This document shows positions 187 through 20,610 of a DNA stretch of 64,000 nt, in pieces. Numbering within the stretch: the stretch's first letter is position 1; each line of letters starts with the position of its first letter. The position numbers and the translations under genes were made by a program. The DNA is from Spirochaetales bacterium (GTDB lineage: Bacteria > Spirochaetota > Spirochaetia > JAIPGG01), in NCBI GenBank assembly GCA_021736255.1, contig JAIPGG010000004.1, positions 3,747 through 67,746 of the forward strand, given 5' to 3'. Under the pieces are notes generated by a model, which saw only the letters and a program-made list of their open reading frames with translations, was not told the origin of the DNA and searched no databases.

Positions 187-519
187 TCAGGCAGGACTGA
201 TCATTATCCGTGGATATCGTTCAACCTGTTCGAGAAAGAGACGGACCTTCTTTTTCCCATCCAGTTTCTGTACCGACTTCATGCCCAGTTCCACCGTACC
301 GAGACGGCACTCGTTTTTCTGGTACAATCGGGCATAGACAGGCGGATCATCCTGCTGCAGGGGAAGATTATCAGGATCGGGAGTGATCACGAGTTCAACG
401 GTGGCCTCGGTCATCATGAGTCCCAAATCGAACCCGTCGTTGGGGTTGATAACCAGCTCCTTTTCGGTAAACGATTGGTCGGCGAGGACCTTCAATTCTC
501 CGGTCTTTTTTCTGCTCAT
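187..519 (-). CDS. hypothetical protein (110 aa)
   Basis: An ORF with an ordinary globular composition. It competes with overlapping plus-strand ORFs 143-337 and 148-546, which look less protein-like. I recognise no family, and no clear SD precedes the ATG. Confidence 0.45.
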   Translation of the reverse strand: MSRKKTGELKVLADQSFTEKELVINPNDGFDLGLMMTEATVELVITPDPDNLPLQQDDPPVYARLYQKNECRLGTVELGMKSVQKLDGKKKVRLFLEQVERYPRIMISPA

Positions 520-604: not shown

Positions 605-1996
605 ATGCCGGTTGAAAAAACTACATTAAGCAGTAGTGATCGCAACAGAGGCCAACGGTTCCTCCGGCGTTTCGTTACCCTGAATGGAATCTCCGTAGCC
701 TTTCTCATGAACGATCTGTTGATACTCTACGGAATCCGGAACGGGCTCGATGATCCGCAGGTTGCACTGCTTGCCTCGTTTATCCATCTGTCCATGCCCT
801 TCATGCTTTTCGGTATGTCCTGGATCCGCCGGGTCGGAGCTGCGCGCACTTGGGGATACGGGTGGCTCTTTCGTTACCTCTCGGGTTCTGTTCTCATTCT
901 CGCGCCTTGGATCGGCCGTTTCGCTCCCGAAACATTTGTCCACCTGGTCATTCTCCTCGGTGCATTCGGCTTTGCTGTTTTCCGAAGCATCGGGTTGGTA
1001 GCGAACTCTCCGCTTATCGGGGAGATAACCACCGAAGGCGAACGGGGCCGGTTCCTTTCGGGAAACTGGGTACGGGCAAATACGACCTATTTCTTTTCCA
1101 TGGCGCTGATAATCGCAATCATGTACTATTTCGATACAATGTGGGTGTACCAGCTGGTCATCGGAGCCGGTTGCGTAATCGGAATATTTGCCAGCCGGGT
1201 ATTGGTCCGGGTCCCGGAAACAGAAGGACCGGCCCGTTCCGCCTCAGAACCGATGGGAAGAGCCCTGAAAGAGATCCTTTCTTCCCCTCGTCTGCGCAGG
1301 ATTATTTTCGCCTGGGGCTCTTCCTTTGCAGCCTTTGTTTTGGTGATTCCCTTTGCCGTCGTTACGGTGAAAAACGGCTACGGCCTGTCGGATTACGCCG
1401 CACTGATCTTTTCACTGCTGGTTTTGGCCGGGGGAATTCTCTCTTCAGCGATAAATGCAGGGGTTTCCGACCACAGCGGGCCCCGGCCGCTTTTGATCCT
1501 CTACGTTACCGGTTTGATTCTGGTAGCGGGGTACTGGGCCTTTGCTCCATCGAGGTTTGCGCCCATACCTACCGCTGCGGCGTTTTTCACCGCGGGTTTC
1601 TGTAAGACCGGCATCATCCTGACCAACAGCCATTACCTGCTCTCAGCCGTCGAAGCCGGCCGGCGGGTGAGTATTTCTCTCTTTGCGCGAATGGCCGGGG
1701 GCGCTATGGCAGGACTCGCCGCTTCGGTCGGCGGCGGCACGCTTCTTCGAATTCTGAGAGAGACCACCTTCGGTAATGTGAGCTTGAATGGAATCGAGGT
1801 CTACCACTGGTATTTCAGGATTCTGGTCCCTGTTCTCCTCCTCCTTTTACTTGTCGTCATGCGGCTGGAGCGACTCAAAGAATGGGGAGTACGCCGGGTA
1901 ATTTCGTTTGTTTTCTCCCTTCAGGGCCTTCAGACAATGCTCATGCCCTCTCAGGACAGTGAAAAAGACGGGAACGAGGAGGACGATTCACGATGA
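605..1996 (+). CDS. MFS-type transporter (about 12 predicted TM helices, acidic C-terminal tail)
   Basis: The 463-aa product is hydrophobic throughout, with the periodic TM segments typical of the major facilitator superfamily. Its stop overlaps the next start (ATGA at 1993-1996). Confidence 0.75.
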   Translation: MPVEKTTLSSSDRNRGQRFLRRFVTLNGISVAFLMNDLLILYGIRNGLDDPQVALLASFIHLSMPFMLFGMSWIRRVGAARTWGYGWLFRYLSGSVLILAPWIGRFAPETFVHLVILLGAFGFAVFRSIGLVANSPLIGEITTEGERGRFLSGNWVRANTTYFFSMALIIAIMYYFDTMWVYQLVIGAGCVIGIFASRVLVRVPETEGPARSASEPMGRALKEILSSPRLRRIIFAWGSSFAAFVLVIPFAVVTVKNGYGLSDYAALIFSLLVLAGGILSSAINAGVSDHSGPRPLLILYVTGLILVAGYWAFAPSRFAPIPTAAAFFTAGFCKTGIILTNSHYLLSAVEAGRRVSISLFARMAGGAMAGLAASVGGGTLLRILRETTFGNVSLNGIEVYHWYFRILVPVLLLLLLVVMRLERLKEWGVRRVISFVFSLQGLQTMLMPSQDSEKDGNEEDDSR

Positions 1997-2364
1997 AAGG
2001 AGTGAAAGGAGTACCCATGCCGCCGCTCGTTTTGATCGCCTGCACGGTGGTGATTGCGAGCGCCGGCCAACTGGCAGCACGCGGCGGCGCGCTTCTTGCC
2101 GGTCAGGCCCCTCTGTGGCTGGTGAGTGTGCTGTTTCTTGGCAGCTACCTGGCTCTTGCCGGACGGGGAGTGCTCTGGCTCTTCGTATTACGCAAAATGC
2201 CCCTCTCCGTTGCCTATCCGCTGTATGCTGCTGTTTTTTTCTTGGTACCTGCTGGGGCGGCATGGCTTTATGATGAAGCGGTTAGTCTTCACTCTGCCGC
2301 AGGCTGGGCTTTGATCGGAGGAGGGGTCGTGTTGACCGGCATTCGTGCGGGGAAACAACGTTGA
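1993..2364 (+). CDS. small 4-TM DMT/EamA-like membrane protein (ArnE/ArnF-like flippase subunit candidate)
   Basis: The 123-aa product has four hydrophobic helices. It is paired with a second similar ORF and sits next to a GT2 gene, as in arnC-arnE-arnF arrangements. Confidence 0.6.
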   Translation: MKGVKGVPMPPLVLIACTVVIASAGQLAARGGALLAGQAPLWLVSVLFLGSYLALAGRGVLWLFVLRKMPLSVAYPLYAAVFFLVPAGAAWLYDEAVSLHSAAGWALIGGGVVLTGIRAGKQR

Positions 2365-2735
2365 TTGAAGCGGGTTTGTTGTCACAGTTGAGGCCTTATC
2401 TTTTTCTCTGCGGAATGCTGATCCTGGTGACCGCCGGGCAGATTCTCCTGAAGGCAGGGGCCCCGCGAATGGAAACGGGGCAGGGACTGAAGACCTTCGT
2501 TATCAGCCTTTTCCGCCCCCCTTTGGTTATCGGGGCCGGGCTCGTTTTTTCCGCTCCGGTGTTGTATTTTCTGGCCCTCCGGGACCTGTCCCTCGGACAA
2601 GCCTTTGCCGTCTCTGCCCTCTCGATTGTCCTCGTTCCCGCAGGCGCCCGAATCTTCCTGCAGGAGAGGATTACACCTTTACAGCTAGCAGCAATGATTA
2701 TGATTGCGGGAGGAGTAGTCCTTGCCAACCTCTGA
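2361..2735 (+). CDS. small 4-TM DMT/EamA-like membrane protein (ArnE/ArnF-like, second subunit)
   Basis: 124 aa with a TTG start that overlaps the previous stop. It has four hydrophobic helices and is a paralogous partner of 1993-2364. Confidence 0.6.
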   Translation: MIEAGLLSQLRPYLFLCGMLILVTAGQILLKAGAPRMETGQGLKTFVISLFRPPLVIGAGLVFSAPVLYFLALRDLSLGQAFAVSALSIVLVPAGARIFLQERITPLQLAAMIMIAGGVVLANL

Positions 2736-3585
2736 TCGTATCAAAGTCTCTCTGATCATCCCCACATTTCATCCTGCCGAATTTCACCCGGAAAGGGCAT
2801 TCCACGGGGAAGATGTTTCATCCGGCGGAGATCCATATTTGAATACAGAGGTGCACAACCCAATACAGACCCTCAGCAGGATGATCAGCAGCTGTGCAGA
2901 CAAGGAAAGAGAGATCATAATCTGTGATGACGGAAGCGGGGCAGAATATCAAACAGCCCTCCGCAATCTCTGCAGAAACCAGAGGGATACGGAAATCTTT
3001 TCTCCACTGAAAAGGAACCGACTTCGCTGTATCTTCATGGACCGGAACCGGGGACAGCAGATTGCCACGATAGCAGGTATGAGTGTTGCCCGGGGCAGCT
3101 GGATTATTACCATGGATGACGACGGTGAGCATCCGCCCGAATGCATTGAAGAATTGATAGCCCGCGGAGAGGAAGGAAACGACTTGGTCTATGCCGCGGT
3201 AAAGCAGCCGGAGAAAAGGAAAACAACCTGTATGCGCAGAACCGGCTCTGCTCTCAATCAATTTCTGTTTACCCGCTTTCTTGGCCTTCCAAAGGAGGTT
3301 CGGGTTTCGAGTTTCCGCGCAATACGGGCAACTTGGTTCCGGCAGACTTTTGAAAATCTGGAGAATCCCTTCCCCTACCTTTCGGCTATGCTCCTCCGGG
3401 AAGGCCCTCGGGTTTCCTCCATCCGGTATTCCGGAAAAGCTGCCTCGGCAAGCCGGTACAGCATTGCCTCTCTCGCGCTAATCTGGTGGAAGCTTTTCCG
3501 CTTCTGGGGCCCTCTCCGGTTTATTCCGTCCGAACGGCCGCATTTGACCGCCGATGATATTCGGTCTATGTACCGGGAGAAATAG
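2722..3585 (+). CDS. family-2 glycosyltransferase (polyprenyl-phosphate sugar synthase-like, ArnC/DPM1-like)
   Basis: N-terminal VSLIIPTF, then IIICDDGSG and ITMDDDGEHPP (the DxD region), which are typical GT-A/GT2 signatures. The gene overlaps its upstream neighbour. Confidence 0.8.
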   Translation: MPTSDRIKVSLIIPTFHPAEFHPERAFHGEDVSSGGDPYLNTEVHNPIQTLSRMISSCADKEREIIICDDGSGAEYQTALRNLCRNQRDTEIFSPLKRNRLRCIFMDRNRGQQIATIAGMSVARGSWIITMDDDGEHPPECIEELIARGEEGNDLVYAAVKQPEKRKTTCMRRTGSALNQFLFTRFLGLPKEVRVSSFRAIRATWFRQTFENLENPFPYLSAMLLREGPRVSSIRYSGKAASASRYSIASLALIWWKLFRFWGPLRFIPSERPHLTADDIRSMYREK

Positions 3586-3610
3586 AGTGAGGAAGAAGCT
3601 CCGTTCAATC

Positions 3611-4891
3611 ATGGTACTCGGCGGGGGCAGCAGCCAGATTCATCTGCTGCAAAGGGCCCTGAAGGCCGGGTTTTATGTGATTCTCGCAGATAAAGATCCC
3701 GATGCACCCGGAAGACGGTACTGCAGCGAATTCGTAGAGGCTTCCACCTTCGACATAGATGCGGTAACGCAGGCAGCCTCCCGGACCGGTGCCGAACGGA
3801 TTATTGCCGCCGGAAGCGATCAGCCGGTACTCACCGCTGCCGCAGCCTCGGCGGCCAACGGTCTGCCCTATCCCCTTTCTCCGGAAACCGCCCTTGCGGT
3901 AACGAACAAGCGAATAATGAAAACTATCTTTCACAAGGCTGATATTCCGACGGTCCGCTGGGCCCTTGCCGATGAAGATGGGAACCTGACGTTTGAACCG
4001 CAACAACAAGCAGAAAAGCCCCGCCCCCTCTTCGAGTCAACAGCCTCTCCTCTGGTGGTAAAACCGGTGGACAGCCAGGGACAGCGGGGTGTTCTGCTCG
4101 TCGACGACCGGAAGAAGATAAAGCAGGCAGCAAGCTACGTTCTCTCATACTCCCGGGAACCTGTTTTTTTGGTAGAGGAATATTATCCTTCGGGGGAAGT
4201 AACGGTTTCAGGCTGGGTGGAAAACGAAAAATGTAAAATCTATGCCGTAACCGACCGGGTAACCATCGATAATCCGCCGAGTCTGGGTGTTTGCACCGCC
4301 CACCGATATCCTTCCCGTTTTTTTCCTGAATTCAAGGAGGAGTTCGAAACGATCACCCGGCAGATAGTATCTTCCTTCGGCATCAGATCAGGCCCGATCT
4401 ATTTTCAGTACTTGATCGGGAAAGAGGGAATCAAGGTAAACGAGATAGCCTGCAGGCTCGGCGGAGCATACGAGGATGAATCTCTTCCGCGGGTCACCGG
4501 CATCGACATCATTGGAAAACTGCTGGGGGAAACGGAGGAAGCAGGCGGCGACAGGATAAGCCGAGAAAACAATACAAACCTGCACAAATATTTCTCTGTC
4601 CCTCTGATCTTCTGCAAACCCGGGCTGATACGTGAAATCCACGGAACCGGAGCAAGCCGGAAGATGAAAGGTGTTCACTCGCTATCCATTCTTCAAAAAC
4701 CGGGTACTCAAATAACCGATATGCAGAACTCCACCCAACGAGCGGCCTATGCCGTTATATCCGGTTTCACTGTCGGGGAGGTGAATAGGGCGGTCGATGA
4801 ATTATTCGATACCCTTCGGTTCTCCGATGAAAGGGGAAACGACCTATTGATAGACAGCCGGGATTCCTGCAAACTGAATCAGGATTTATGA
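3611..4891 (+). CDS. ATP-grasp domain carboxylate-amine ligase
   Basis: A pre-ATP-grasp Rossmann segment (IMVLGGGSSQIHLLQRALKAGFYVILADKD) is followed by an ATP-grasp body (PLVVKPVDSQGQRGV..., EEYYPSGEVTVSG, NEIACRLGG). The start is uncertain: ATG 3611, GTG 3587, or the ORF-track start 3554. Confidence 0.7.
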   Translation: MVLGGGSSQIHLLQRALKAGFYVILADKDPDAPGRRYCSEFVEASTFDIDAVTQAASRTGAERIIAAGSDQPVLTAAAASAANGLPYPLSPETALAVTNKRIMKTIFHKADIPTVRWALADEDGNLTFEPQQQAEKPRPLFESTASPLVVKPVDSQGQRGVLLVDDRKKIKQAASYVLSYSREPVFLVEEYYPSGEVTVSGWVENEKCKIYAVTDRVTIDNPPSLGVCTAHRYPSRFFPEFKEEFETITRQIVSSFGIRSGPIYFQYLIGKEGIKVNEIACRLGGAYEDESLPRVTGIDIIGKLLGETEEAGGDRISRENNTNLHKYFSVPLIFCKPGLIREIHGTGASRKMKGVHSLSILQKPGTQITDMQNSTQRAAYAVISGFTVGEVNRAVDELFDTLRFSDERGNDLLIDSRDSCKLNQDL

Positions 4892-5910
4892 TGGGAAAGC
4901 AGCAGAACCGGCAATATTTTTTTCTTATTATCGCCCTGGTATTGATCGCTCCGCTCGTTCTTGGCTTTCTCGGATGCGGTAGGGAATCTGATCCGCAAAC
5001 GCATTCTGCCGGCACGAAAAGCGGCAAACAGCCGGTTTTACGCATTGCAGAACAGTACGGACTGGCCTATGCCCCGCTTTCTGTTGCCAAGGCCCGGGGA
5101 CTCGTGCAAGCGGAGCTTCCCGGATGGCGAATCGAGTGGAAACAACTCGGGAATACAGCGGCTATTCGAGAGGCAATGATCGCAAAGGATCTCGATACTG
5201 GTTTCATGGGGATCCCCCCGTTCCTGATCGGCTGGGACCGGGGTATGAAATGGAAAATCTTTACCGGTCTTTCACAGGCCCCCCTCGGTCTTGTTACCTG
5301 GCGATCTGATATCCGCTCACTCGAAGACTTTGACCGAGACGACAGGATCGCACTCCCTCAACCCGGCAGCATCCAGCATATTCTCTTATCGATGGCAGCC
5401 GAACGGAGCCTCGGCGCCCCGAAGGCCTTCGATTCCAGGCTGGTAACACTCAACCACCCCAACGGCATGCAAGCATTGCTCGCCAGGCGGGATATTACCG
5501 CGCATTTCACCTCCCCCCCCTACCTGATGATGGAGCTTGCAACAGAAGATATGCACGAGGTGATTTCCGGACAGGAAGCAATGGGCGGTGAGTTTACGTT
5601 CATTGTCGGAACGGTAACCGATGAGTTTGCAGACAGAAATCCGGAAGCTGTGAAAGGTCTCGAACGAGCACTCGACAGGGCGATGACAATTTTGGCCGCC
5701 GGCGGAGGACGAAAGGAACTGGCCGCCGGCTTCAATCTCGAATTACCGGAGATCGAAAGCTATCTCGATCATCCCGATCTCGTCTATACCACAGAGGTTC
5801 AGGGGCTCGCTGAGTTTCTGGATTTTATGCTGCGACACAATTTTATCCGGAGAAAACCCGAAGAGAAAGAAGGAGTTTCCGGACTCTTGTGGGCTGGAGC
5901 CACGAAGTGA
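4888..5910 (+). CDS. ABC transporter substrate-binding lipoprotein, NMT1/SsuA/TauA-like (NitT/TauT family)
   Basis: A lipobox (LGFLGC) follows a hydrophobic signal, and the fold resembles periplasmic aliphatic-sulfonate/taurine/nitrate binders. The start overlaps the ATP-grasp stop (ATGA). Confidence 0.7.
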   Translation: MMGKQQNRQYFFLIIALVLIAPLVLGFLGCGRESDPQTHSAGTKSGKQPVLRIAEQYGLAYAPLSVAKARGLVQAELPGWRIEWKQLGNTAAIREAMIAKDLDTGFMGIPPFLIGWDRGMKWKIFTGLSQAPLGLVTWRSDIRSLEDFDRDDRIALPQPGSIQHILLSMAAERSLGAPKAFDSRLVTLNHPNGMQALLARRDITAHFTSPPYLMMELATEDMHEVISGQEAMGGEFTFIVGTVTDEFADRNPEAVKGLERALDRAMTILAAGGGRKELAAGFNLELPEIESYLDHPDLVYTTEVQGLAEFLDFMLRHNFIRRKPEEKEGVSGLLWAGATK

Positions 5911-6704
5911 CCCCCTCCAAGCGCCTTCTGCATGGAAGAAACAGAATAGTACGAAGGCTGATTTGGGTTGTCGTAATAATTGCCGGTTATGAAATAATAC
6001 GCCGGGGTCTGGAGATCTCTCCGCTCGCACTGCCCCCGATCGTGGAGATAGGAAGCGCCTTTTTTGCCGGTTTTGGAGAAGGAGACCTGCTCCAACAGCT
6101 TGTCCGGTCCTTGATTTTGATCGCAGCGGCCCTCGCTGCAGGAGCTGGGGCCGCCCTTGGTCTGGCCCTGCTCAGTGTTCGCCGTTCCTTTTTTGCCGAG
6201 CTCATCGACGGCCTGGTGGCCATATTCCATCCTCTTCCCGGCATCGCTCTTCTGCCCATTGTCATCCTCTGGTTCGGCACGGGTACCGCCTCTCTGCTGG
6301 TAATCATTATTCATTCCGTCCTCTGGCCGATGATAACGAACCTTACCGCCGGTTTGCGGGGAGTCTCTCCGACCCAAATCATGGCAGGAAAGAACCTCGG
6401 CATGGGCCGTTCCGAACTCTTTTTCCGAATCCTTCTGCCCGCTTCCTTGCCCTATATTATAGCGGGAATGCGGATTGCCTGGGCCCGAAGCTGGAGAGCC
6501 CTTATTAGTGCAGAGATGGTCTTCGGAGCTATCGCAGGGGCCGGAGGAATCGGCTGGTATCTTTATTCGAAGCGGGTCTTCATGGACTCGGCCGGACTGT
6601 TTGCCGGTGTTGTTCTTATTATTCTGATCGGGGTACTGGTAGAGGATGTGGTCTTCCGCCGGATTCAGAGGAAAACGGTAGAACGGTGGGGAATGGAACG
6701 CTGA
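5889..6704 (+). CDS. ABC transporter permease (NitT/TauT family)
   Basis: Six TM segments and an EAA-like loop region (ARSWRALISAEMV), in the context of the neighbouring SBP and ATPase genes. Confidence 0.8.
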   Translation: MGWSHEVTPSKRLLHGRNRIVRRLIWVVVIIAGYEIIRRGLEISPLALPPIVEIGSAFFAGFGEGDLLQQLVRSLILIAAALAAGAGAALGLALLSVRRSFFAELIDGLVAIFHPLPGIALLPIVILWFGTGTASLLVIIIHSVLWPMITNLTAGLRGVSPTQIMAGKNLGMGRSELFFRILLPASLPYIIAGMRIAWARSWRALISAEMVFGAIAGAGGIGWYLYSKRVFMDSAGLFAGVVLIILIGVLVEDVVFRRIQRKTVERWGMER

Positions 6705-7471
6705 TGGAAGAACGGATAATTTTCTCCGCCGAGAGAATTGTAAAATACTACCAGAATGGCGAAACAGGGGTACCCGTTTTATCGAATATTTCATTGAAGC
6801 TGAAGGAGAGAGAATTCGTCTGCATTCTCGGGCCCTCAGGCTGCGGGAAATCGACACTGCTACGGGTTCTTTCCTCCCTCGAAAAGGCCGATTCTGGAAC
6901 TATCGCTCTCGACGGGAACGAGATTACAGGTCCCGGCCCCGATCGAATGCTCATCTTTCAGGAGCAGGACCAGCTCTTCCACTGGCTGAGCACACGTTCG
7001 AATATTCATTTGGCCCTTGGCAAAACAGGCACTCAGAGCGAGCAAGAGCGTGAAAAACAAACCACAGCACTCCTTCGTCAATTCGGATTACAGGAAGCAG
7101 GAGACAAGTTTCCTCATCAGCTTTCCGGCGGAATGAAACAGCGGGCTGCCATCGCCAGGTCACTGGCAGCCGGTCCCCGAATTCTTTTTCTTGATGAACC
7201 GTTTTCCAGTCTCGACGCGATGACCCGAGAACACCTCCAGATATTTCTCCTCGACCTCTGGAAAAGGAGGAATCTTACACTGCTTTTTGTAACCCATGAT
7301 ATTACCGAGGCAGCTCTTCTTTCGGACCGGATAATTATTATGAATGCTGAGGGTAAGCTCGTAAAAGAAGTCGAGAATACACTCAGCCGCCCCCGGGACC
7401 GGGACGGAACAGACCTTCACAAATTCACTGCCGTTCTCCGGCAGGAGCTTTCCCATAATCCCGGTCTTTGA
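6704..7471 (+). CDS. ABC transporter ATP-binding protein (NitT/TauT family)
   Basis: Walker [10 protein letters not shown], signature LSGGMKQR, Walker B LFLDEP. ATG 6704 overlaps the permease stop (TGATG); the alternative GTG start is at 6686. Confidence 0.85.
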   Translation: MEERIIFSAERIVKYYQNGETGVPVLSNISLKLKEREFVCILGPSGCGKSTLLRVLSSLEKADSGTIALDGNEITGPGPDRMLIFQEQDQLFHWLSTRSNIHLALGKTGTQSEQEREKQTTALLRQFGLQEAGDKFPHQLSGGMKQRAAIARSLAAGPRILFLDEPFSSLDAMTREHLQIFLLDLWKRRNLTLLFVTHDITEAALLSDRIIIMNAEGKLVKEVENTLSRPRDRDGTDLHKFTAVLRQELSHNPGL

Positions 7472-9098
7472 TCCGGTAGACAGTTACCGCCCATTCTTTC
7501 CTGTCCTGATAAAGCACAAGCCGCATCCCGTAAACAGGATTCACTATCTCTGCAATTTTTTCACCCTGCTCATCGAGGATATCTTTCAACCGGGGATACC
7601 ACGGCGCGATATTTCCATAGACTGTGTTCCAGACCGGCCGGCTGCGGTAGATTAACTCGAGTTCCTCGGGAAGTAGTATATATTCAACCCTCTCCTGAGC
7701 TAAAAACCTTCCTATCCCCGGGAAATCCGGTCCGCTGAGATCCCGAAAAACCCTGAGTTTCCCATGGTCGAAAGCAAAGGCGGTATTCAAGTTTGCAAGC
7801 ACAGTCGCATCGCCGGGCACATGTCTTTGAATAGCTTCGATATAATCAGCATACCGGGACTTGCGCCAGGGCAGCACTGTATCCGCTGTGTTCCACAAGA
7901 GAAATCCGAAGACTCCTGTCAGGACAAGGATGCCGGCGAGCCTTACAGCCTTACTGAATTGTAAACTGACTTTCCCATATCCTTTTGCTGCCTCCACAAT
8001 AAAAGACAAGAAAACAATAAAACCAAGATAACCGAGGGGGAACAGAAACAATATGCTCGGGGGTGAATATTTTCCAATCAGGAAATATCCAACAGCAACA
8101 AGAGGCAAGCCTGCAAGCAGCCATCCGAATATATCTTTTCCGGAGTTTTGTTTTTTGCGTATGAAGAGGAGACCCACCGTTCCTATCCACGAAACGAGAA
8201 AAAGGCGCAGCTGAAATCCAACCGGCGGTAAAAAGTAGGTTCCGGCAATCTGTCCGTCAATCTTCCGAAAAAAAGAAAAGAACCTGGATAGTCGAGTCAC
8301 CGGATGATCAGTCACCCCTACTTCCCTTCCGAATTCCAGATAATTGTAAAGAAAGTCCGGGTCCATGATGAAGCTTACGGCAACTGCCGATGCAGCACAT
8401 ACAGCCAATCCCAAAATCAGTATACCTGCAGCAGGGAGGGGTCCGATGGTCCTGCTTTTGCTCTTTTTCCTCGAAAGAAGAAACCACAGAAAAAAGGGAA
8501 AGGGAAGTGCGATAATAAAACTGTTTGGATGAATGAAAACCCCGGCGCCGAGAATAAGCGATAAAAGAAAACTGTCGCGAACTCGCCAATCCCTACTTTG
8601 AACCGTCACATACCAAATACCGGCACACATAAGCAGAACCATAAAAATTTCCTGCCTTCCGATATGAGATGCGGTAATAAACTGAATATCTACAGATAGC
8701 AGGATGGCGGGAATCATCCCCGCTGCAACACTTCCAAAGCGGGAAGTAAAAAGACGCCGCCCGGCATCAGCGAGAAACAGCAGGGATGCAAACCCTGCTC
8801 CAAGAGAGGGAACCCTTGCAGCAACGGCAGACCAATCAACCGCTATAAAGGGCATTTGAAAGAGATGAAAAAGGATTTTTATCGCATGCGGCATGCGGGG
8901 TGTACTGTGGAAAAAGTCCTCGGTGGCCGCAAGGGAACCGGATTCAATCATGGACCTGGTCAGTGATGCAAGCCAGGCCTCGTCGGAATGGACAAAGGGG
9001 AAGAAAGGCAAAGACCAGATGTGGAACAAGAGGTAGGCTGCTATGGCTGCTGCGGCAGCGGCGACGCCGAGCAGTTTTCTGTTCACTCCTTTCCTCAC
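7425..9098 (-). CDS. GT-C fold membrane glycosyltransferase (ArnT/PMT-like, GT39/GT83-like)
   Basis: 557 aa with more than 10 TM helices. An acidic DE motif sits after TM1 (FVHSDEAWLA) and there is a soluble C-terminal domain of about 150 aa. GTG start. The 3' end overlaps the convergent ABC ATPase gene by 47 nt. Confidence 0.7.
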   Translation of the reverse strand: MRKGVNRKLLGVAAAAAAIAAYLLFHIWSLPFFPFVHSDEAWLASLTRSMIESGSLAATEDFFHSTPRMPHAIKILFHLFQMPFIAVDWSAVAARVPSLGAGFASLLFLADAGRRLFTSRFGSVAAGMIPAILLSVDIQFITASHIGRQEIFMVLLMCAGIWYVTVQSRDWRVRDSFLLSLILGAGVFIHPNSFIIALPFPFFLWFLLSRKKSKSRTIGPLPAAGILILGLAVCAASAVAVSFIMDPDFLYNYLEFGREVGVTDHPVTRLSRFFSFFRKIDGQIAGTYFLPPVGFQLRLFLVSWIGTVGLLFIRKKQNSGKDIFGWLLAGLPLVAVGYFLIGKYSPPSILFLFPLGYLGFIVFLSFIVEAAKGYGKVSLQFSKAVRLAGILVLTGVFGFLLWNTADTVLPWRKSRYADYIEAIQRHVPGDATVLANLNTAFAFDHGKLRVFRDLSGPDFPGIGRFLAQERVEYILLPEELELIYRSRPVWNTVYGNIAPWYPRLKDILDEQGEKIAEIVNPVYGMRLVLYQDRKEWAVTVYRIKDRDYGKAPAGERQ

Positions 9099-9151
9099 CT
9101 GGAAGCAGCCTCGCCGACTGCTTTCATTCCAGCAGGGGTTGCCGGGGACAG

Positions 9152-9190
9152 AAAAAAGCCCCCGACGCCGCAGCGCCGGGGACTTTTCTT
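9152..9190 (-). terminator. Rho-independent terminator of the sulfur operon
   Basis: On the minus strand, stem CCCCGGCG / CGTCGGGG (one G-U pair) has a 6-nt loop and is followed by GCTTTTTT. It lies 17 nt after the rhodanese stop. Confidence 0.6.
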
Positions 9191-9206
9191 TGACGATGTA
9201 TCGTCG

Positions 9207-10148
9207 TTACTGCACAACAGGGTATCCTTCGGTTACCCAGCCCATGGGCTCGTTCTTCGGTGTTCCCATACCGCCTTTGAGAGAGGCGGCATCATAACCG
9301 ATGACCTTCAGGATGGCCACAGTCTGCCCGGCAGTCTGTCCGCTGTAGCAATTTACTATGAGCTTCTTGTCTGCGGGAAGGCTTCCGAACATCTCGTGCA
9401 TATCGGCCCCGTAGGGAATGTTGACGGCCGTTTCGATATGCCCCTGGTCGTAGTCTTCTTTTCGGCGGATATCGACGAACTGCACCGAATCATCTTCTGC
9501 ATCGAGGATCTTCTTTGCGTTCTCTGAACTAATGATGTTGTTTGCAAAGGGAGTTCCGGCAAGTTCTTCGAATTCCTTATAATAGGCGTCTACCGTTTCC
9601 TGTACGGCCGGAGCGATCTCATTGTTTGCAGAGGGTACGGCTACCTCGGTAGTATCGATAAACTCATCTGCGCCTTCTACCTTGGAAAAACCGTAGTTGA
9701 ACCCGTACCGCACGGACTTGACGGGGATTCCGGCAAGGTTCAAGAGCGCCACCGTCTGCCCGGCGGTCTGCCCGCTGTAGCAGTAGAGATAGACCTGTCC
9801 GCTCTGGGGAATAGATGCCAGGTACTGTGCAAAATCCGGGCCCCAGGGCATGTTTACCGCTCCGGTAACATGTGCCTCTGCATAGGCATCGGGTTGACGG
9901 ATATCAATAACGAACATATCCTCGCCGTTTTGCAGCTTCTCGAGGAGCATCTCCTCCTTGATAATGTAGCCGCCCTGAGGGTATTCGTCGAAGTAGTCCT
10001 TTGCGAGTTCAGTTACATCAACAGCCGGTTCAGCAGCTTCCTGGGCCTGCTGTTCTCCCTGCGCACCTTCCTGCTGCCCCTTCGCGGTTACGGTCGCCGC
10101 GGAAAGTACCAGCAGAAGCACCAATAGAATGGGAAAGAGCTTTTTCAT
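9207..10148 (-). CDS. exported tandem-rhodanese sulfurtransferase
   Basis: Start reassigned to MKKLFPILLVLLLVLSAATVTA (signal peptide, RBS GGAGGAAG). There are two rhodanese domains, each with an active-site loop CYSGQTAGQT. Confidence 0.8.
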   Translation of the reverse strand: MKKLFPILLVLLLVLSAATVTAKGQQEGAQGEQQAQEAAEPAVDVTELAKDYFDEYPQGGYIIKEEMLLEKLQNGEDMFVIDIRQPDAYAEAHVTGAVNMPWGPDFAQYLASIPQSGQVYLYCYSGQTAGQTVALLNLAGIPVKSVRYGFNYGFSKVEGADEFIDTTEVAVPSANNEIAPAVQETVDAYYKEFEELAGTPFANNIISSENAKKILDAEDDSVQFVDIRRKEDYDQGHIETAVNIPYGADMHEMFGSLPADKKLIVNCYSGQTAGQTVAILKVIGYDAASLKGGMGTPKNEPMGWVTEGYPVVQ

Positions 10149-10233
10149 TGCTTCCTCCGAAAATTTCTTGTATTTATCTACTCCATCCGCCGGGCAAACT
10201 GCTCCGGTACGGATGGAGGTCCTGCACACTGTT

Positions 10234-11133
10234 TTATGAATTGTCCGCTGCTTCCAGTTCGAGAACCTCCGGGTCGGGCACATAAACCGGATTCATCGGG
10301 TTCGCGCTCCATTCAACCCACGCGCCGTCGTAAAGCTTCAGGTCCCGGTAACCGGCATTGTAGAGCGCCAGATACGTCTGGGCCCCGCGGATCGAAGTTT
10401 TGCAAAACATGATCACGGTATCGTCGAAATCGATGTCTTCTTCGAGGTAGCGAATTCTGATCTGCTGTACCGGTTTGTAGGTTCCGTCCTGGAAATTATT
10501 GCCGGTGAAATTCAAAAGAATCGATCCGGGGATGGTTCCCTCTTTGTATTCTTCTTCCGTCCGCGTATCGACAATACAGGTATTCTCGTCCGGGGTGTCG
10601 AGATGGTCTCGAATGTCTTCAGTAGTGGCTATCATTTCATCACGCCGAGGACCGGGTTCGAAAACAGCCGGCTGAACCGATGGCTTATCAGTGGTGATCT
10701 TTGCCCCCTCTTGCTTCATTGCAGCCAGGCCGCCGCTTACAACCTTTACCTGATCGTGTCCGTAGACCTTGAGGGTCCACCACAAACGGGCCGAATCCAT
10801 ATTTTTGTTGTTATCGTAAACAACAACCTGGGTATCATTGCTGATCCCCCGGCTTCCCATGACCTCGGCAATCTGCTCGGGCGGAGCCAAGAGGTTGGGA
10901 TACGGATCATTTACGACTATGTCTGCCCGGGCAATCGATACGGCTCCTGCAACATGTTCCTTCCGATAATCCAGAAGGTTCTGAGCATCCACAAGAAGGG
11001 CCCCTTCGCTTACGAGAGTTTGTGCCTCGGCGGCAGTAATTACCTCGGTATCTTGTTCACCGGCCGGCGGTGTCCCGCAGGCGAGAAGCGGAAGAACTAA
11101 AACCGCCACAACGGCTAACAGCTTGATCTTCAT
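10234..11133 (-). CDS. thiosulfate sulfurtransferase-like rhodanese lipoprotein (two-domain, SseA/TST-like)
   Basis: Lipoprotein signal MKIKLLAVVAVLVLPLLAC. It has an inactive N-terminal and a catalytic C-terminal rhodanese domain with loop CKTSIRG. Confidence 0.8.
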   Translation of the reverse strand: MKIKLLAVVAVLVLPLLACGTPPAGEQDTEVITAAEAQTLVSEGALLVDAQNLLDYRKEHVAGAVSIARADIVVNDPYPNLLAPPEQIAEVMGSRGISNDTQVVVYDNNKNMDSARLWWTLKVYGHDQVKVVSGGLAAMKQEGAKITTDKPSVQPAVFEPGPRRDEMIATTEDIRDHLDTPDENTCIVDTRTEEEYKEGTIPGSILLNFTGNNFQDGTYKPVQQIRIRYLEEDIDFDDTVIMFCKTSIRGAQTYLALYNAGYRDLKLYDGAWVEWSANPMNPVYVPDPEVLELEAADNS

Positions 11134-11160
11134 ATATCCTCCAGTTCCTAAATAATGCCG

Positions 11161-12414
11161 TTATACCGAAACCGGCTCGGCAACATATTTGTTCAGGGCT
11201 TCATAGATATGGGGCTTATCGCACTGGGTGGAAGTCTCAACCACTTCTCCCTCCTTGGTATAGAAGATGGTCATTGGTTCCACATCACAGGCAAGCCGGT
11301 CACAAAGGGATTTCCCCTTGTACTGATCGATGACATTCACTTTAACCTGACCGTCATATTCTTCTTCGATCTCCCGCAGCATAGGAAGCAGCTCTCGGCT
11401 CGGTGCATCGATAGCCGAGTACACGTAAATCAGACCTATCTTTTCCTTCTGCATGATCTGGTTTTTAAAGAGCTCGGTTTCCGAAATATGTTTTTCAGCT
11501 TCTACCCCGGCGATTGCACCGTCACCAACGGCGGTTGCAACCTGCTTGAGTTCTTTTTCTCGCACATCCCCGCATGCATAGACTCCGGCGATTCCTGTTT
11601 CCATCTTTTCATTGGTAATGACATATCCCTGCTTGCTGAGAGAAAGTTTGTCTTTGAATATCTCGGTGTTCGGTACATAGCCGATGAACTCGAAACAGGT
11701 ATCCACGTCGATGGGTATAATCTCTCCGGTCTTCAGGTTCTTGAGGTTCACCCGCTCGAGCTGCTCATCGCCTTCGAAGGAGTCGACTACTGTGTTCCAT
11801 ACGAACTCCATCTTCGGATTGTCGAGGGCCTGATCGCGTGAGATCTCGTTGCAGTCCATTTTCCCCTCATCGTGGATGACCGATACGATGACCTTCTTGG
11901 CAAACTTGCTTAGAAACATCCCTTCTTCAATAGCTGCATCCCCGGAACCAATAACCATAACGGTCTTGTCGGTATTTGCCGCAGCATCACAGGTAGCACA
12001 AAAAGATATACCCTTGTCGAAAAGGTATTTCTCCTCGTTCTCGGCACCTGTCGTCCTCGGTCTTCCGCCTGAGGCAACAATCACCGTCTTGGCTTCGAAA
12101 ATATTCCGAAAGGTTTCGACCTTCTTTACTTCGCCGTCGAGTTCGACATTCTTGACATCGGTAAGTTTGAACTTTACACCGAAGTTTTTTGCCTGTTTCT
12201 GGAAGAGCTCCATCAGGCCGAGACCGGTATTTCCCTCCGGAAAGCCGGGGTAATTCATGATCTCGTTCGTGTAGGTGGCTAACCCGCCGACCAGAGACTT
12301 TTCGATAAGCAGGGTTTTCAACTGCGCCCTGCCGCAGTATATTCCTGCAGTCATTCCACCGGCGCCTCCGCCGATTATGACCACATCATATTGTTCTACC
12401 TTCTTTTCTCGCAT
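11161..12414 (-). CDS. thioredoxin-reductase-like flavoprotein fused to a C-terminal thioredoxin-fold domain
   Basis: FAD site VVIIGGGAGG, redox-active CATCD, and second dinucleotide site VIGSGDAAIEE. HDEGKMDC stands where TrxR has HRRDxxRA. The roughly 100-aa C-terminal Trx-like fold has no CxxC. Confidence 0.8.
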   Translation of the reverse strand: MREKKVEQYDVVIIGGGAGGMTAGIYCGRAQLKTLLIEKSLVGGLATYTNEIMNYPGFPEGNTGLGLMELFQKQAKNFGVKFKLTDVKNVELDGEVKKVETFRNIFEAKTVIVASGGRPRTTGAENEEKYLFDKGISFCATCDAAANTDKTVMVIGSGDAAIEEGMFLSKFAKKVIVSVIHDEGKMDCNEISRDQALDNPKMEFVWNTVVDSFEGDEQLERVNLKNLKTGEIIPIDVDTCFEFIGYVPNTEIFKDKLSLSKQGYVITNEKMETGIAGVYACGDVREKELKQVATAVGDGAIAGVEAEKHISETELFKNQIMQKEKIGLIYVYSAIDAPSRELLPMLREIEEEYDGQVKVNVIDQYKGKSLCDRLACDVEPMTIFYTKEGEVVETSTQCDKPHIYEALNKYVAEPVSV

Positions 12415-12438
12415 ATGATCTCCTCTTTTCGGATAAGG

Positions 12439-12984
12439 CTACATAAAGTATTTAACCAGCATCTTGCTGCCGACTACGGCTCCGAAAAACATGGCCAATC
12501 CGAAGACCCAACCGGACAGGGAAAATGAAGCAATACCGGAAAAAAGAGCACCGATATTACACCCGAACCCGATGCGGGCCCCGTAGCCCATAAAAATACC
12601 TCCGAGAATCGCCGCAACAACCTGCCGCCAGGATTTGATTTTCTTGATCTTGAATCCGGAGGCTATAAGAGCGGCAAACAGAGCTCCGACAATAATGCCG
12701 ATATTCCGCCAGCTTCCCGGATCCCGAACAAACCCGCCGTCTATCGTAGTCCAAGCAGACTCTCGGGCAAAGTAATACCATTTATCCACCGAACCGCCGA
12801 GAGATTCGAATATCCAGGCACCCCAGTTGGCAAACACCGCAGAGACTCCCCACGGATTCCGGGTTACAGCAATGGTGAGAATCTGAAATACCGACAGCAA
12901 TATTGCAGCAGTCAGATAGGGCCAGGCATCCTTGAGCCAAAGCTTGTAATATTCGTTTTTCTTGACATTATCGAAGAATTTCAT
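12439..12984 (-). CDS. YeeE/YedE family sulfur-compound transporter, C-terminal half
   Basis: 181 aa and polytopic, with the conserved GFGCNIGALF motif. Confidence 0.8.
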   Translation of the reverse strand: MKFFDNVKKNEYYKLWLKDAWPYLTAAILLSVFQILTIAVTRNPWGVSAVFANWGAWIFESLGGSVDKWYYFARESAWTTIDGGFVRDPGSWRNIGIIVGALFAALIASGFKIKKIKSWRQVVAAILGGIFMGYGARIGFGCNIGALFSGIASFSLSGWVFGLAMFFGAVVGSKMLVKYFM

Positions 12985-12993
12985 ATTGATCCC

Positions 12994-13221
12994 CTACTTT
13001 GTCTTTTCGATGATGACTTCCCATTCACCATCGTCAATCTCTTCGATTTCTACGTTGTGTCCCTCGGTGCGGGCCCATTCGGGAACATTCTTCATTGCAC
13101 AGCTGTGATCGAGCTGAACAATCAGTACATCGCCAACCTCCAGTTCTTCGAGTTTCTTCTGTGCTTTTACCAGAGGAACCGGACAGGCTTCACCGTAACA
13201 ATCTAATTCGACTTCCTTCAT
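12994..13221 (-). CDS. TusA/YeeD-like sulfur carrier protein (copy 1, 75 aa)
   Basis: CPxP-type motif DCYGEACPVPLVKAQKKL. Start reassigned to MKEVELD (RBS AGGAG). The ORF-track N-terminal extension overlaps copy 2. Confidence 0.85.
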   Translation of the reverse strand: MKEVELDCYGEACPVPLVKAQKKLEELEVGDVLIVQLDHSCAMKNVPEWARTEGHNVEIEEIDDGEWEVIIEKTK

Positions 13222-13235
13222 AGCTGTGCTCCTTT

Positions 13236-13463
13236 CTATTTCGTTTTCTCTATGATGACTTCCCATTCACCGTCGTCGATCTCTTCGATCTCGACATTGT
13301 GGCCCTCGGTGCGGGCCCATTCGGGAACATTCTTCATCGCACAACTGTGATCGAGCTGAACGATCAGCACATCACCCACTTCCAGTTCTTCGAGTTTTTT
13401 CTGTGCCTTAACCAGGGGGACCGGACAGGCTTCACCGTAACAATCTAATTCGACTTCCTTCAT
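13236..13463 (-). CDS. TusA/YeeD-like sulfur carrier protein (copy 2, 75 aa, protein identical to copy 1)
   Basis: Same 75-aa sequence as copy 1. RBS GAGGTG. Confidence 0.85.
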   Translation of the reverse strand: MKEVELDCYGEACPVPLVKAQKKLEELEVGDVLIVQLDHSCAMKNVPEWARTEGHNVEIEEIDDGEWEVIIEKTK

Positions 13464-13483
13464 CGTATATCACCTCTTCTTGT

Positions 13484-14215
13484 TTAATGTTCTGCGCCGG
13501 CAGCTGCTGCCTGTTTTCTTTTGGCAAACTTATCCGCGGCAATCCACAGGAACACAATGATCAATAAATGAACAATAAGTGCTCCGATCCAACCAAATAT
13601 ATCCGGTAGAAAGACCTCATCTCCCTTGAGAATTACATTCAGTTTCCACCATCCAAAATGGTACGCTCCGAGCAGTGAACCAACGATGAAGAAGACGAGG
13701 GAAAGAACCTGCATCATAAATCCCTCACCTACCCGCATCAGTGTTCCCGAAGCACATCCGCCGGATATGACCATACCGATACCGAAAATAAATCCTCCGA
13801 CTATAGTCGCCAGACTTATCGGTACAACAAAACCCATACCGGGAATTGGAAGTCCCTGGGTAAAAGCCCCGTACTTGATTGCCCAGAAACCAATACCGGT
13901 AACCGCAAAAGCAACGAGTACGGCTTTTGAAAGATTGGTTCCTCCGGTCAGGTACGGATCCCTCATTGCAGCCGTAAAACAAAACCGGCCGCGCTGGAGA
14001 ATAAACCCGAATCCGATACCCGTGAGCCAAAAGAACGTTAAATTCTCCGACAACCCGCTCAAGACGATCCCGACAATAACGATGCCGATGAAAACGAGAA
14101 TCCCCAGAGGGATCTGGTTCGTTTTCTTCTTCCGGGAACGGGACCGTGAAGAACTCCTGCGGATTGTTGATCCGCCGGATGATGCCGGGGCCGCAGCATT
14201 CGTATCTTCGCCCAT
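13484..14215 (-). CDS. YeeE/YedE family sulfur-compound transporter, N-terminal part with Ser/Arg-rich cytoplasmic tail
   Basis: Motifs RGRFCFTAAMRD and SGGCASGTLMR. The N-terminal 40 aa are low complexity (SSSRSRSRKKK). RBS GGAGG. Confidence 0.8.
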   Translation of the reverse strand: MGEDTNAAAPASSGGSTIRRSSSRSRSRKKKTNQIPLGILVFIGIVIVGIVLSGLSENLTFFWLTGIGFGFILQRGRFCFTAAMRDPYLTGGTNLSKAVLVAFAVTGIGFWAIKYGAFTQGLPIPGMGFVVPISLATIVGGFIFGIGMVISGGCASGTLMRVGEGFMMQVLSLVFFIVGSLLGAYHFGWWKLNVILKGDEVFLPDIFGWIGALIVHLLIIVFLWIAADKFAKRKQAAAAGAEH

Positions 14216-14478: not shown

Positions 14479-14507
14479 TTGACTCACCCGGACACTTCTT
14501 CTAATGT
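14479..14507 (+). promoter_or_regulatory. candidate sigma-70 promoter
   Basis: TTGACT, 17 nt, TAATGT, followed 13 nt later by GAGGAG and then ATG 14527. Confidence 0.45.
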
Positions 14508-14526
14508 ATCCTTCGAGGAGAAAGCT

Positions 14527-15423: not shown

Positions 15424-15452
15424 ATTCAGATATGAATGAAGGATTACAAACT

Positions 15453-16664: not shown

Positions 16665-16743
16665 AAAAACGAATCAAAGACCGGGATGGACAGCTGCATA
16701 GACCAGTGCAGTCTGCTCCAAAGTTCGCAGGAGGTTTTCCGCA

Positions 16744-18407: not shown

Positions 18408-18408
18408 T

Positions 18409-20598: not shown

Positions 20599-20610
20599 AT
20601 CAATTCTCGA

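Follow-up and report, generated by a model that had tools for sequence, protein, structure and literature searches.

A probable Arn-like glycosylation gene cluster that adjoins genes for exported rhodaneses in Spirochaetota and Bacillota

In a 64,000-nucleotide stretch of DNA from a Spirochaetales bacterium (contig JAIPGG010000004.1), called the window here, genes for a probable Arn-like glycosylation pathway adjoin genes for exported rhodaneses and for proteins related to sulfur uptake. The original prediction for this DNA had described positions 605 to 9098 as an Arn-like envelope-modification cluster. The best explanation of the data presented below is that these plus-strand genes make up one half of a system of about 15 genes in two operons, which extends from 605 to 14215. 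We give a probability of roughly 0.55 to the reading that this is an Arn-like surface glycosylation system serving extracytoplasmic sulfur handling. The gene association itself is strong and broad, reaching about 500 species of anaerobic bacteria in Spirochaetota and Bacillota, and no description of the combined cluster of glycosylation genes and exported rhodaneses was found in the full-text literature searched. What appears to be new is a probable carrier-lipid glycosylation pathway with an ATP-grasp tailoring step that occurs across two phyla and is coupled to exported rhodaneses.

Open reading frames (ORFs) were read from a program-made list, and their families were assigned by Pfam and NCBIfam profile searches. 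Between 605 and 9098 there are nine ORFs, eight on the plus strand (605-7471) and one convergent ORF on the minus strand (7425-9098). Their families and the chain of overlapping stop and start codons were as originally described, according to the ORF list, the profile searches and a reading of the junctions. The convergent ORF encodes a C-fold glycosyltransferase (GT-C) and is the last gene of a contiguous minus-strand string that runs from 14215 to 7425 in the order YeeE, TusA, YeeE, thioredoxin-reductase-like (TrxR-like) protein, Rhod2, Rhod1 and GT-C, and that lies tail to tail with the plus-strand string. The two functional halves are interleaved, with the GT-C gene in the rhodanese string and the genes of an ATP-binding cassette (ABC) importer in the string that carries the ATP-grasp ligase gene.

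Evidence that these genes belong together comes from other genomes. The ATP-grasp protein has no close relative in the database, the best being about 50% identical, but many that share 40-50% of its residues were found among Spirochaetota, Clostridia and Halanaerobiales. When one genome per species was scanned with it, relatives turned up in 504 species genomes. In total, 83 loci were fetched, 80 of them from the scan, and were searched by tblastn with every window protein. ORF-family clustering covers 81 loci, and the fully flanked set consists of the 37 loci for which roughly 10 kb of sequence is available in either direction. In 81 of the 83 loci, the ATP-grasp gene is immediately preceded by a gene for a family 2 glycosyltransferase (GT2). 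All 37 fully flanked loci carry GT2 and GT-C genes, and at least one rhodanese gene is present in 36 of them (Rhod1 in 36, Rhod2 in 34). The YeeE/TusA module occurs in 32 (the YeeE gene at 13484..14215 in 31 and the TrxR-like gene in 25), and the importer genes in 29-30 (the permease gene in 30). When the ORFs of all loci were clustered without supervision, the same families emerged and no others that were similarly frequent. Thus, the synteny of the ATP-grasp gene with GT2 and GT-C genes that had been expected for relatives holds throughout the fully flanked set and extends to fusion proteins. The right edge originally drawn at 9098 had excluded the rhodanese genes (36/37) and the YeeE/TusA/TrxR-like module (32/37), and these missed partners therefore point to sulfur metabolism rather than to resistance against cationic peptides.

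Some genes of the plus-strand string are less widely shared. The string opens with a gene for a major facilitator superfamily (MFS) transporter (605..1996; Pfam MFS_1, E 1.6e-11) with nine transmembrane-like segments, for which tblastn found no counterpart in any of the 83 related loci; it was rejected as a part of the system and is a lineage-specific gene. Next come genes for two small proteins with four transmembrane segments that are candidate flippase subunits. The first, of the small multidrug resistance (SMR) type and ArnE-like (1993..2364, plus strand), scores 41 bits with the NCBIfam ArnE model (cut-off 92), and the second, of the SMR/EamA type and ArnF-like (2361..2735, plus strand), scores 31 bits with Pfam EamA and 25.6 bits with the ArnF model (cut-off 99). 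At these scores the two proteins are SMR-fold relatives of ArnE and ArnF and not equivalogs. The ArnE-like gene was found in 21 and the ArnF-like gene in 23 of 81 loci (7-8 of the 37 fully flanked loci), always in spirochaete-named records except for one unclassified metagenome-assembled genome and never among Bacillota-named loci, and the pair was consequently rejected as the essential flippase. Of the gene set originally proposed, GT2, ATP-grasp, GT-C and, in 29-30 of 37 loci, the importer are retained here, while the MFS gene and the SMR pair fall outside the core.

Gene order and orientation vary among spirochaetes, Clostridia and Christensenellales; in Christensenellales-type loci, for example, the GT-C, transaminase, GT2 and ATP-grasp genes all run in a single direction. 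Because the order differs in this way, the association of GT-C and rhodanese genes can be said to survive rearrangement. A DDE transposase gene is inserted between the Rhod1 and GT-C genes in one spirochaete genome (locus L085, 11958-13523). The association also holds when the loci are entered from the sulfur side. Starting from Rhod2 homologs, the full gene set was recovered on three of three long contigs that had not been used before. Starting from a YeeE half, with metagenome contigs and tblastn, all orthologs of at least 60% identity with enough flanking sequence were found to carry glycosylation genes, and rhodanese genes were also present wherever the flank reaches.

More distant YeeE proteins, at 44-59% identity, occur in stand-alone units of LysR, YeeE, TusA, YeeE and TrxR-like genes that have neither rhodanese nor glycosylation genes in the 10 kb around them (L096, L098 and L103), and one locus in the same identity range (L102) does have rhodanese and glycosylation genes. 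The idea that the YeeE/TusA/TrxR-like unit is inseparable from the system was therefore rejected: the uptake and reduction unit is separable, and it is the exported rhodaneses to which the glycosylation genes are tightly coupled. The split YeeE genes and the TrxR-like gene are themselves a conserved module for which no description was found. Between Spirochaetota and Bacillota, identity is 67-88% for TusA orthologs inside the cluster, 58-81% for the TrxR-like protein and 50-75% for the YeeE halves, compared with 24-58% for the glycosylation proteins. The high conservation of the sulfur half suggests horizontal transfer or very strong constraint.

Both rhodaneses are predicted to be exported. 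The gene for Rhod1 (9207..10283, minus strand), a protein with two catalytic domains, likely starts at ATG 10148, which would give a signal peptide beginning MKKLFPILLV..., and the gene for Rhod2 (10234..11133, minus strand) encodes a tandem-domain lipoprotein resembling thiosulfate and 3-mercaptopyruvate sulfurtransferases. Each protein matches Pfam Rhodanese (PF00581) in two stretches (E-values for the pair of 3e-27 and 2.5e-32), and a signal peptide or lipobox was seen at the N-terminus of every ortholog of either one. In Rhod1, the cysteines of both domains (CYSGQTA here; CY[ST][GA]QT in general) are invariant in 43 of 43 sequences, and in Rhod2 the lipobox Cys19 and the catalytic Cys244 (CKTSIRG/A) are invariant in 47 of 47. 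With domain and catalytic cysteine both in place, the two proteins belong to the rhodanese family, and from their sequences they appear to be extracytoplasmic and catalytically competent. An NCBIfam family named "rhoda_near_glyco" (NF045521) matches the window rhodaneses weakly, at 31-36 bits against a cut-off of 145, so that they are not members; its name suggests that curators had seen some neighbourhood of rhodanese and glycosyltransferase genes, which may or may not be the one described here.

Useful hints regarding the role of these rhodaneses come from Halanaerobium. Ga0073283_11115 and Ga0073283_11116 of Halanaerobium WG8 served as query proteins for tracking thiosulfate-dependent sulfidogenesis, and three rhodaneses, which were not named, were more abundant with thiosulfate (PMC5497025). 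The first of these query proteins is an ortholog of Rhod2 and the second an ortholog of Rhod1, and their N-termini are identical to those of Rhod2 and Rhod1 in the Halanaerobium loci included here. In the first proteome sample of the supplement to that paper, _11115 and _11116 are abundant, with 41 and 87 spectral counts, and five neighbouring locus tags are present, with 1-3 counts for each of 11110, 11111, 11113 and 11114. Judging from synteny, the five tags that precede Rhod2 would correspond to the genes for the ATP-grasp ligase, binding protein, permease, ATPase and GT-C. Neither the export signals nor the neighbouring genes are mentioned in the paper (PMC5497025). The carriers of the cluster include Halanaerobium congolense, H. 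saccharolyticum and Sediminispirochaeta, which belong to lineages known to use rhodanese-like proteins for the reduction of thiosulfate or sulfur (PMC5497025, PMC3035371). Geosporobacter ferrireducens and Clostridium homopropionicum are carriers as well. Published work on RdlA of Halanaerobium congolense and on the WG8 rhodaneses and AsrABC is thus the nearest precedent, in that the rhodanese pair of the cluster is orthologous to the WG8 pair and the carriers include thiosulfate reducers. That work treats the enzymes as isolated, whereas here they have export signals and adjoin glycosylation and YeeE genes; no asr genes were found within the conserved block.

The glycosylation genes follow a recognizable logic. 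The GT2 gene (2722..3585, plus strand) encodes a protein of the polyprenyl-phosphate-sugar synthase type (Pfam Glycos_transf_2, E 1e-22) whose top NCBIfam matches are ArnC and PgfS, and whose sole sequence matches in the PDB are ArnC, GtrB and DPMS. The protein is not a member of the ArnC family, and the relationship that is supported is with the catalytic domain; no transmembrane-like segment was found in 69 of 79 members of its family. The product of the convergent gene (7425..9098, minus strand) resembles ArnT and PMT proteins (PMT_2, 31 bits) and has no match in a PDB sequence search. Its AlphaFold 2 model (predicted local distance difference test score, pLDDT, 90; predicted template modelling score 0.92) gives a Foldseek probability of 1.00 to STT3, AglB, PglB, ArnT, ALG9 and Emb, and the fold matches also include ALG12; ArnT is found among them at E 2e-6, behind STT3 and AglB. 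Residues H37-S38-D39-E40, just after the first transmembrane helix in the first external loop, are invariant. With its multiple transmembrane segments, its fold and the invariant acidic residues D39 and E40, the protein belongs to the GT-C class, a fold that does not tell lipid, glycan or protein acceptors apart. The carriers among Bacillota (Firmicutes) generally lack lipid A, and because the system occurs in Bacillota as well as in spirochaetes, lipid A is an unlikely acceptor. The carrier-lipid logic of GT2 plus GT-C, with or without small flippases, has withstood the comparison, in that both enzymes are encoded in every fully flanked locus.

Overlapping or closely following the GT2 gene is that for the ATP-grasp ligase (3554..4891, plus strand), which is of the L-amino-acid-ligase type. 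It combines an ATP-grasp core (ATP-grasp_4, PF13535, 34.3 bits against a cut-off of 27) with an LAL_C2 domain (PF18603, 43.9 bits against 29.4), both above the Pfam cut-offs, as is characteristic of L-amino-acid ligases. The structures nearest to its AlphaFold 2 model (pLDDT 88) are 4dim, a protein of unknown function, then the L-amino-acid ligases 3vot, BacD and RizA, and then PurK and PurT. Models for the housekeeping enzymes PurK, PurD, PurT, Ddl and CarB gave only 15-39 bits against NCBIfam cut-offs of 243-1027, and a housekeeping ATP-grasp enzyme was rejected on these scores. The original prediction, which a firm grouping with an unrelated housekeeping family would have contradicted, is therefore upheld in this respect, the PurK, PurD and Ddl models all being far under their cut-offs. 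BacD/YwfE, RizA and BL00235 share the LAL_C2 domain and ATP-grasp core with the window ligase and are its closest characterised structures; their identity to it is merely 15-18%, and the closest structure overall is instead 4dim. At least nine relatives are GT2-ATP-grasp fusion proteins of 650-710 amino acids, and seven of the 79 GT2 family members are fused to an ATP-grasp domain. This fusion with GT2, together with an adjacent WecE gene in relatives, suggests that the amine is supplied by an amino sugar and not by an amino acid, which would set the window ligase apart from the known L-amino-acid ligases.

Clues regarding the sugar are also found in relatives. A DegT-family gene stands directly before the GT2 gene in 39 of 81 loci, which include nearly all Bacillota loci and one spirochaete locus. 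The WecE-type transaminases of Wukongibacter (518 bits), Halanaerobium congolense (495 bits) and the spirochaete locus L037 (416 bits) pass the cut-off of 375 for NF008687, the family of dTDP-4-amino-4,6-dideoxygalactose transaminase, and score 168-215 bits with the ArnB model NF008658 against a cut-off of 631. In some loci there is also a gene for RmlB, a protein that passes TIGR01181, together with an RmlA-like gene. Within the 64-kb window, no aminotransferase or sugar-nucleotide gene was found, nor were ArnA, ArnB or ArnD. The reported absence of tailoring enzymes is accordingly correct for this window and not for the relatives, of which 39 of 81 have a WecE-type transaminase. Because this transaminase precedes GT2 in relatives, the ligase more likely N-acylates an amino sugar with a carboxylic acid than amidates a sugar acid. 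The original prediction had assumed the latter, with an imported amine ligated to a sugar acid, and the placement of a WecE-type transaminase, with or without RmlA and RmlB, before GT2 makes the reverse polarity likelier.

The three importer genes encode a lipoprotein substrate-binding protein of the NitT/TauT family (4888..5910; NMT1_2, 33 bits), a permease (5889..6704; BPD_transp_1, E 1.6e-18; nearest to SaoP, TauC and NtrB, all under cut-off) and an ATPase (6686..7471; ABC_tran, E 1e-31; nearest to SaoA and ntrCD, and also TauB-like; likely start ATG 6704), all on the plus strand. These are the families also found in TauABC and SsuABC. The lipobox cysteine of the binding protein, Cys30, is present in 95% of relatives, and TauA is its sole sequence match in the PDB. 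It is outside the SsuA and TauA families, with 70 bits for TIGR01728 (SsuA_fam; cut-off 163) and 34 bits for TIGR01729 (cut-off 304). TauA binds the amine of its ligand with Glu106 and Asp205 and the sulfonate with Gln30 (PMC6906117). When 63 binding proteins of the cluster were aligned with TauA, an approximate alignment at about 20% identity, Q30 was replaced by glycine, E106 by a gap and D205 by isoleucine, and T132 was kept as serine. The family has invariant residues of its own, namely Q56, N89, R94, E95, Q158, S161, Q163, H164 and H190, with H206 in 92%. Taurine was rejected as the ligand on the loss of the amine- and sulfonate-binding residues, and the import of taurine, as previously suggested, is unlikely. 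The ligand is probably an anion. The importer is missing from eight of the 37 fully flanked loci, which retain GT2, ATP-grasp, GT-C and rhodanese genes.

The remaining minus-strand genes encode what appears to be an uptake and reduction unit. Two genes (13484..14215, Sulf_transp, E 8e-31, the first of the string; and 12439..12984, Sulf_transp, E 2e-33) each encode half of a split YeeE/YedE-family membrane protein, and between them lies a gene for a TusA/YeeD-type sulfur carrier (12994..13266; TusA, E 1e-24). The YeeE halves score 103 and 104 bits with YedE/FdhT (cut-off 350) and 73 and 49 bits with TsuA (cut-off 400), which places them in neither family and only in the Pfam Sulf_transp superfamily; the TusA protein scores 50 bits with TsuB/YeeD and 44 bits with YedF, both under cut-off. 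The fourth gene (11161..12414; Pyr_redox_2, E 7e-43; Thioredoxin) encodes a cytoplasmic TrxR-like flavoprotein with a C-terminal thioredoxin-fold domain. It scores 312 bits with TRX_reduct against a cut-off of 343 and keeps a CATCD motif, and its thioredoxin-like tail has no CxxC, with YSAIDAPS in place of WCGPC. YeeE/YeeD (TsuA/TsuB) and YedE/YedF likewise pair a Sulf_transp membrane protein with a TusA-fold partner, and the present unit differs from them in the splitting of YeeE between two genes, in scores that fall under both cut-offs and in the additional TrxR-like flavoprotein with its thioredoxin-fold tail. In Wukongibacter (locus L003; 3050-3882 and 5954-6172), four TusA genes lie around the YeeE genes, one of them between a LysR regulator gene and sugar-nucleotide genes.

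From the families, folds, export signals, catalytic residues, synteny and fusions observed, a mechanism can be proposed in which this organism's sugar, acyl group, acceptor and the physiological role of the system would be as follows. The ligase would convert a carboxylic acid into an acyl phosphate and, with the acid activated in this way, N-acylate an activated 4-amino sugar in the cytoplasm. In relatives this sugar would be a dTDP-4-amino-4,6-dideoxyhexose made by RmlA, RmlB and the WecE-type transaminase, and in the present organism the corresponding genes would have to sit elsewhere. The ArnC-like GT2 would then load the sugar onto polyprenyl phosphate, and the fusion proteins suggest that acylation and loading are consecutive steps. 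The lipid-linked sugar would be flipped, here by the ArnE/F-like SMR pair and in most relatives by some other flippase, and GT-C would transfer it to an acceptor at the outer face of the cytoplasmic membrane. In the sulfur half, sulfane sulfur from thiosulfate or polysulfide would be captured outside, imported and reduced inside in an NAD(P)H-dependent manner. The glycan might serve this extracytoplasmic sulfur chemistry, most simply by modifying the rhodanese lipoproteins or an envelope component on which they act. The importer, whose ligand is probably anionic, could supply the ligase with its acid, or it could take up sulfite, thiosulfate or a similar sulfur oxyanion.

Several observations weigh against this proposal. 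The link between glycosylation and sulfur is drawn solely from gene neighbourhood, and the existence of stand-alone YeeE/TusA/TrxR-like units (L096, L098 and L103) means that at least this part is separable. GT2 lacks the transmembrane helices of ArnC and GtrB, and it scores only 52 bits with the ArnC model NF007986 against a cut-off of 529. In most relatives, the cluster does not contain a flippase gene of its own. The 64-kb window has no amino-sugar genes, so that the sugar of this organism is extrapolated from relatives. Finally, the best matches of the YeeE halves (YedE/FdhT) and of the LysR regulator found in Firmicutes (LysR_Sec_metab, 196 bits, cut-off 250) are associated with selenium, and the element handled could thus be selenium.

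These points leave room for other explanations, some of which concern the product of the glycosylation genes. In the model first put forward for this DNA, an amine, sulfonate or amino acid is brought into the cell and joined to a carrier-linked sugar acid, GT-C uses the product to alter envelope charge, as in resistance to cationic peptides, and the sulfur genes play no part. Such a pathway would fit the translational coupling of the importer genes to the ATP-grasp gene (ATGA at 4888), their co-occurrence in 29-30 of 37 loci and the lack of amino-sugar genes in this window, and ATP-grasp amidation of glucuronate is known from the Campylobacter jejuni capsule (Cj1438). We consider it unlikely, given that relatives place a 4-aminotransferase of the WecE type, with or without RmlA/RmlB, directly before GT2 and that no UDP-sugar dehydrogenase, the enzyme that makes uronic acids, was found among the ORF families present in at least eight of 81 loci. 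Furthermore, the eight loci without an importer keep the GT2, ATP-grasp, GT-C and rhodanese genes, the binding protein lacks the amine-binding residues of TauA, the occurrence in Bacillota makes lipid A an improbable acceptor, and rhodanese genes accompany the system in 36 of 37 loci. It is also conceivable that GT2 and the ligase make a soluble cytoplasmic glycoside, either a compatible solute or a thiol similar to bacillithiol or mycothiol, that is moved by the MFS or ABC transporters, with GT-C doing something separate. A GT2 without transmembrane helices, the many halophiles among the carriers and the precedent of bacillithiol and mycothiol, which are amino-sugar amides of cysteine, would agree with this. 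It is very unlikely all the same, since GT-C enzymes require a lipid-linked donor and GT-C is found in 37 of 37 loci, the only relatives of GT2 among sequences with structures are polyprenyl-phosphate glycosyltransferases, and the MFS gene is not conserved. A variant of the favoured mechanism borrows from the same chemistry. In bacillithiol and mycothiol, cysteine is amide-linked to glucosamine, and the ligase might similarly attach a thiol-bearing acid, cysteine- or lipoate-like, to the 4-amino sugar, to be displayed outside as a tethered acceptor of sulfane sulfur. The thiol group, carried either by the rhodanese lipoproteins or by a polymer of the envelope, would take sulfane sulfur from the exported rhodaneses, while the importer and the YeeE, TusA and TrxR-like proteins would recover and reduce the products. 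We regard this specific version as quite improbable.

Other explanations concern the sulfur genes and their connection to the rest. Surface glycosylation and sulfur uptake could be unrelated modules that happen to share an island spread by horizontal transfer, in which case it would mean nothing for their function that they are adjacent. Order and orientation differ among spirochaetes, Clostridia and Christensenellales, the YeeE/TusA/TrxR-like unit is found alone, and the sulfur proteins (TusA 67-88%, TrxR-like 58-81%) are far more conserved than the glycosylation proteins (24-58%), which may mean that their histories are different. This account seems doubtful, because the adjacency of GT-C and rhodanese genes outlasts rearrangements across orders of two phyla (36/37), as co-regulation would predict and hitch-hiking would not. 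In the window, moreover, the modules interleave, GT-C with the rhodanese genes and the importer with the glycosylation genes, and the part that can separate is the YeeE/TusA/TrxR-like unit and not the rhodaneses. Another possibility is that the whole system handles selenium, which the exported rhodaneses would capture and the YedE-, YedF- and TrxR-like proteins would import and reduce, with the glycosylation genes in a supporting role. Both YeeE halves have the selenium family YedE/FdhT as their best NCBIfam match, at about 103 bits each, the regulator in Firmicutes best matches a LysR family of selenium metabolism (196 bits), Rhod2 weakly matches ExtH, a rhodanese of a selenite/tellurite reduction operon, and YedE, YedF and LysR_Se have been tied to selenium use by comparative genomics (PMC5322559). 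Every one of the selenium-family matches is nevertheless under its cut-off, TusA matches thiosulfate TsuB/YeeD slightly better than YedF, and among the families that recur across the 81 loci there is no selD, selA or selB. Three unnamed rhodaneses are reported as more abundant with thiosulfate, and the cluster pair matches the search queries of the same paper (PMC5497025); known carriers, such as Halanaerobium and Spirochaeta smaragdinae, are thiosulfate or sulfur reducers (PMC5497025, PMC3035371). Sulfur is favoured over selenium because of these thiosulfate phenotypes and the proteomics, and a selenium system is accordingly held to be improbable.

On the preferred reading of an Arn-like system that serves sulfur handling, the cluster is not a member of the Arn family itself, as its proteins fall outside the ArnC and ArnE/F families and ArnA, ArnB and ArnD were not found in the window, though it is Arn-like in logic. 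The Arn system (ArnB, ArnA, ArnC, ArnD, ArnE/F and ArnT) adds aminoarabinose to lipid A. Its steps have counterparts in the DegT/WecE-family 4-aminotransferase of relatives, the proposed N-acylation of the sugar amine, the ArnC-like GT2, the SMR-type ArnE/F-like pair of this window and the ArnT/PMT-like GT-C proposed to act at the outer face. In contrast to Arn, there is no ArnA or ArnD here, an ATP-grasp ligase would take the place of the formyltransferase, and a deacylase gene is absent. The sugar, too, would be a dTDP-4-amino-4,6-dideoxyhexose, judging from relatives, rather than UDP-Ara4N. In addition, GT2 has no transmembrane helices, all Arn models score far under cut-off, and the present system is tied to exported rhodaneses and occurs in Bacillota as well. 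Three-component systems such as GtrA/GtrB/GtrX, CsbB/GtcA/YfhO and PgfS/PgfM1/PgfE/PgfM2 of Streptococcus mutans share the route from GT2 through a flippase to GT-C and an extracytoplasmic acceptor. In the Pgf system this acceptor is protein, and PgfS is the second-best NCBIfam match of the window GT2. These systems use different sugars and have no ATP-grasp ligase, amino-sugar transaminase or link to a sulfurtransferase.

The junctions of the plus-strand genes are tight. Overlaps were read as ATGA at 1993-1996 and 4888-4891, TTGA at 2361-2364 and TGATG at 6702-6706, and the coding ends of the GT-C and ATPase genes overlap by 47 nucleotides. The apparent overlap of the GT2 and ATP-grasp genes hinges on the choice of start codon and may not be real: GTG 3587, with GGGAGA upstream, or ATG 3611, which is implied by a 426-amino-acid database protein, are likelier starts than ATG 3554, and both fall just after the GT2 stop. 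A scan for promoters and terminators did not define transcription units, with promoter-like sites near the number expected from shuffled sequence and terminator-like sites off the ends of the operons. Promoter-like sites upstream of the YeeE gene at 13484..14215 (14451-14357, minus strand) match the consensus only weakly.

Other genes surround the cluster. A 110-amino-acid ORF that diverges from it (187-519, minus strand) has no family match and no relative in the first 83 loci, and may not be a gene. In spirochaetes, an Amidohydro_1 gene is found near the cluster (18409-19656 in the window; 8580-9965 in locus L001; 5374-6666 in locus L084), with a gene for S-adenosylhomocysteine hydrolase adjacent to it in L084 and about 5 kb off in L001; the two may reflect methionine or sulfur salvage, or mere synteny within the lineage. 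Genes unrelated to the cluster at 14479-24323 encode a YD-repeat protein, a HEAT-repeat protein, two cyclic nucleotide (cNMP)-binding proteins, one of them with TPR repeats, a PHP-domain protein and an ABC system similar to MlaE/MlaF/MlaD. Housekeeping genes at 24782-41779, which encode an M23/LysM peptidase, a class A penicillin-binding protein, a homolog of Borrelia P83/100 (E 1.5e-74), pyruvate phosphate dikinase and a sigma-70 factor, confirm the spirochaete origin of the DNA.

By reducing thiosulfate with the help of rhodaneses, Halanaerobium and related fermenters cause oil, gas and shale systems to sour and corrode, and there has been no explanation so far of how a rhodanese, which needs a thiol acceptor, works in these organisms. 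These fermentative anaerobes are not known to make glutathione. If a glycan-tethered thiol were indeed displayed on their surface, they could turn over thiosulfate or polysulfide outside the cell. The findings would also extend Arn-type logic, with its succession of transaminase, N-acylation, GT2, flippase and GT-C, to Bacillota, to a new sugar and to a new class of ligase, the ATP-grasp class being one that, to our knowledge, had not been seen before in such carrier-lipid pathways. Overall, surface glycosylation, or a cofactor borne on a glycan, may belong to the extracytoplasmic sulfur metabolism of these bacteria.

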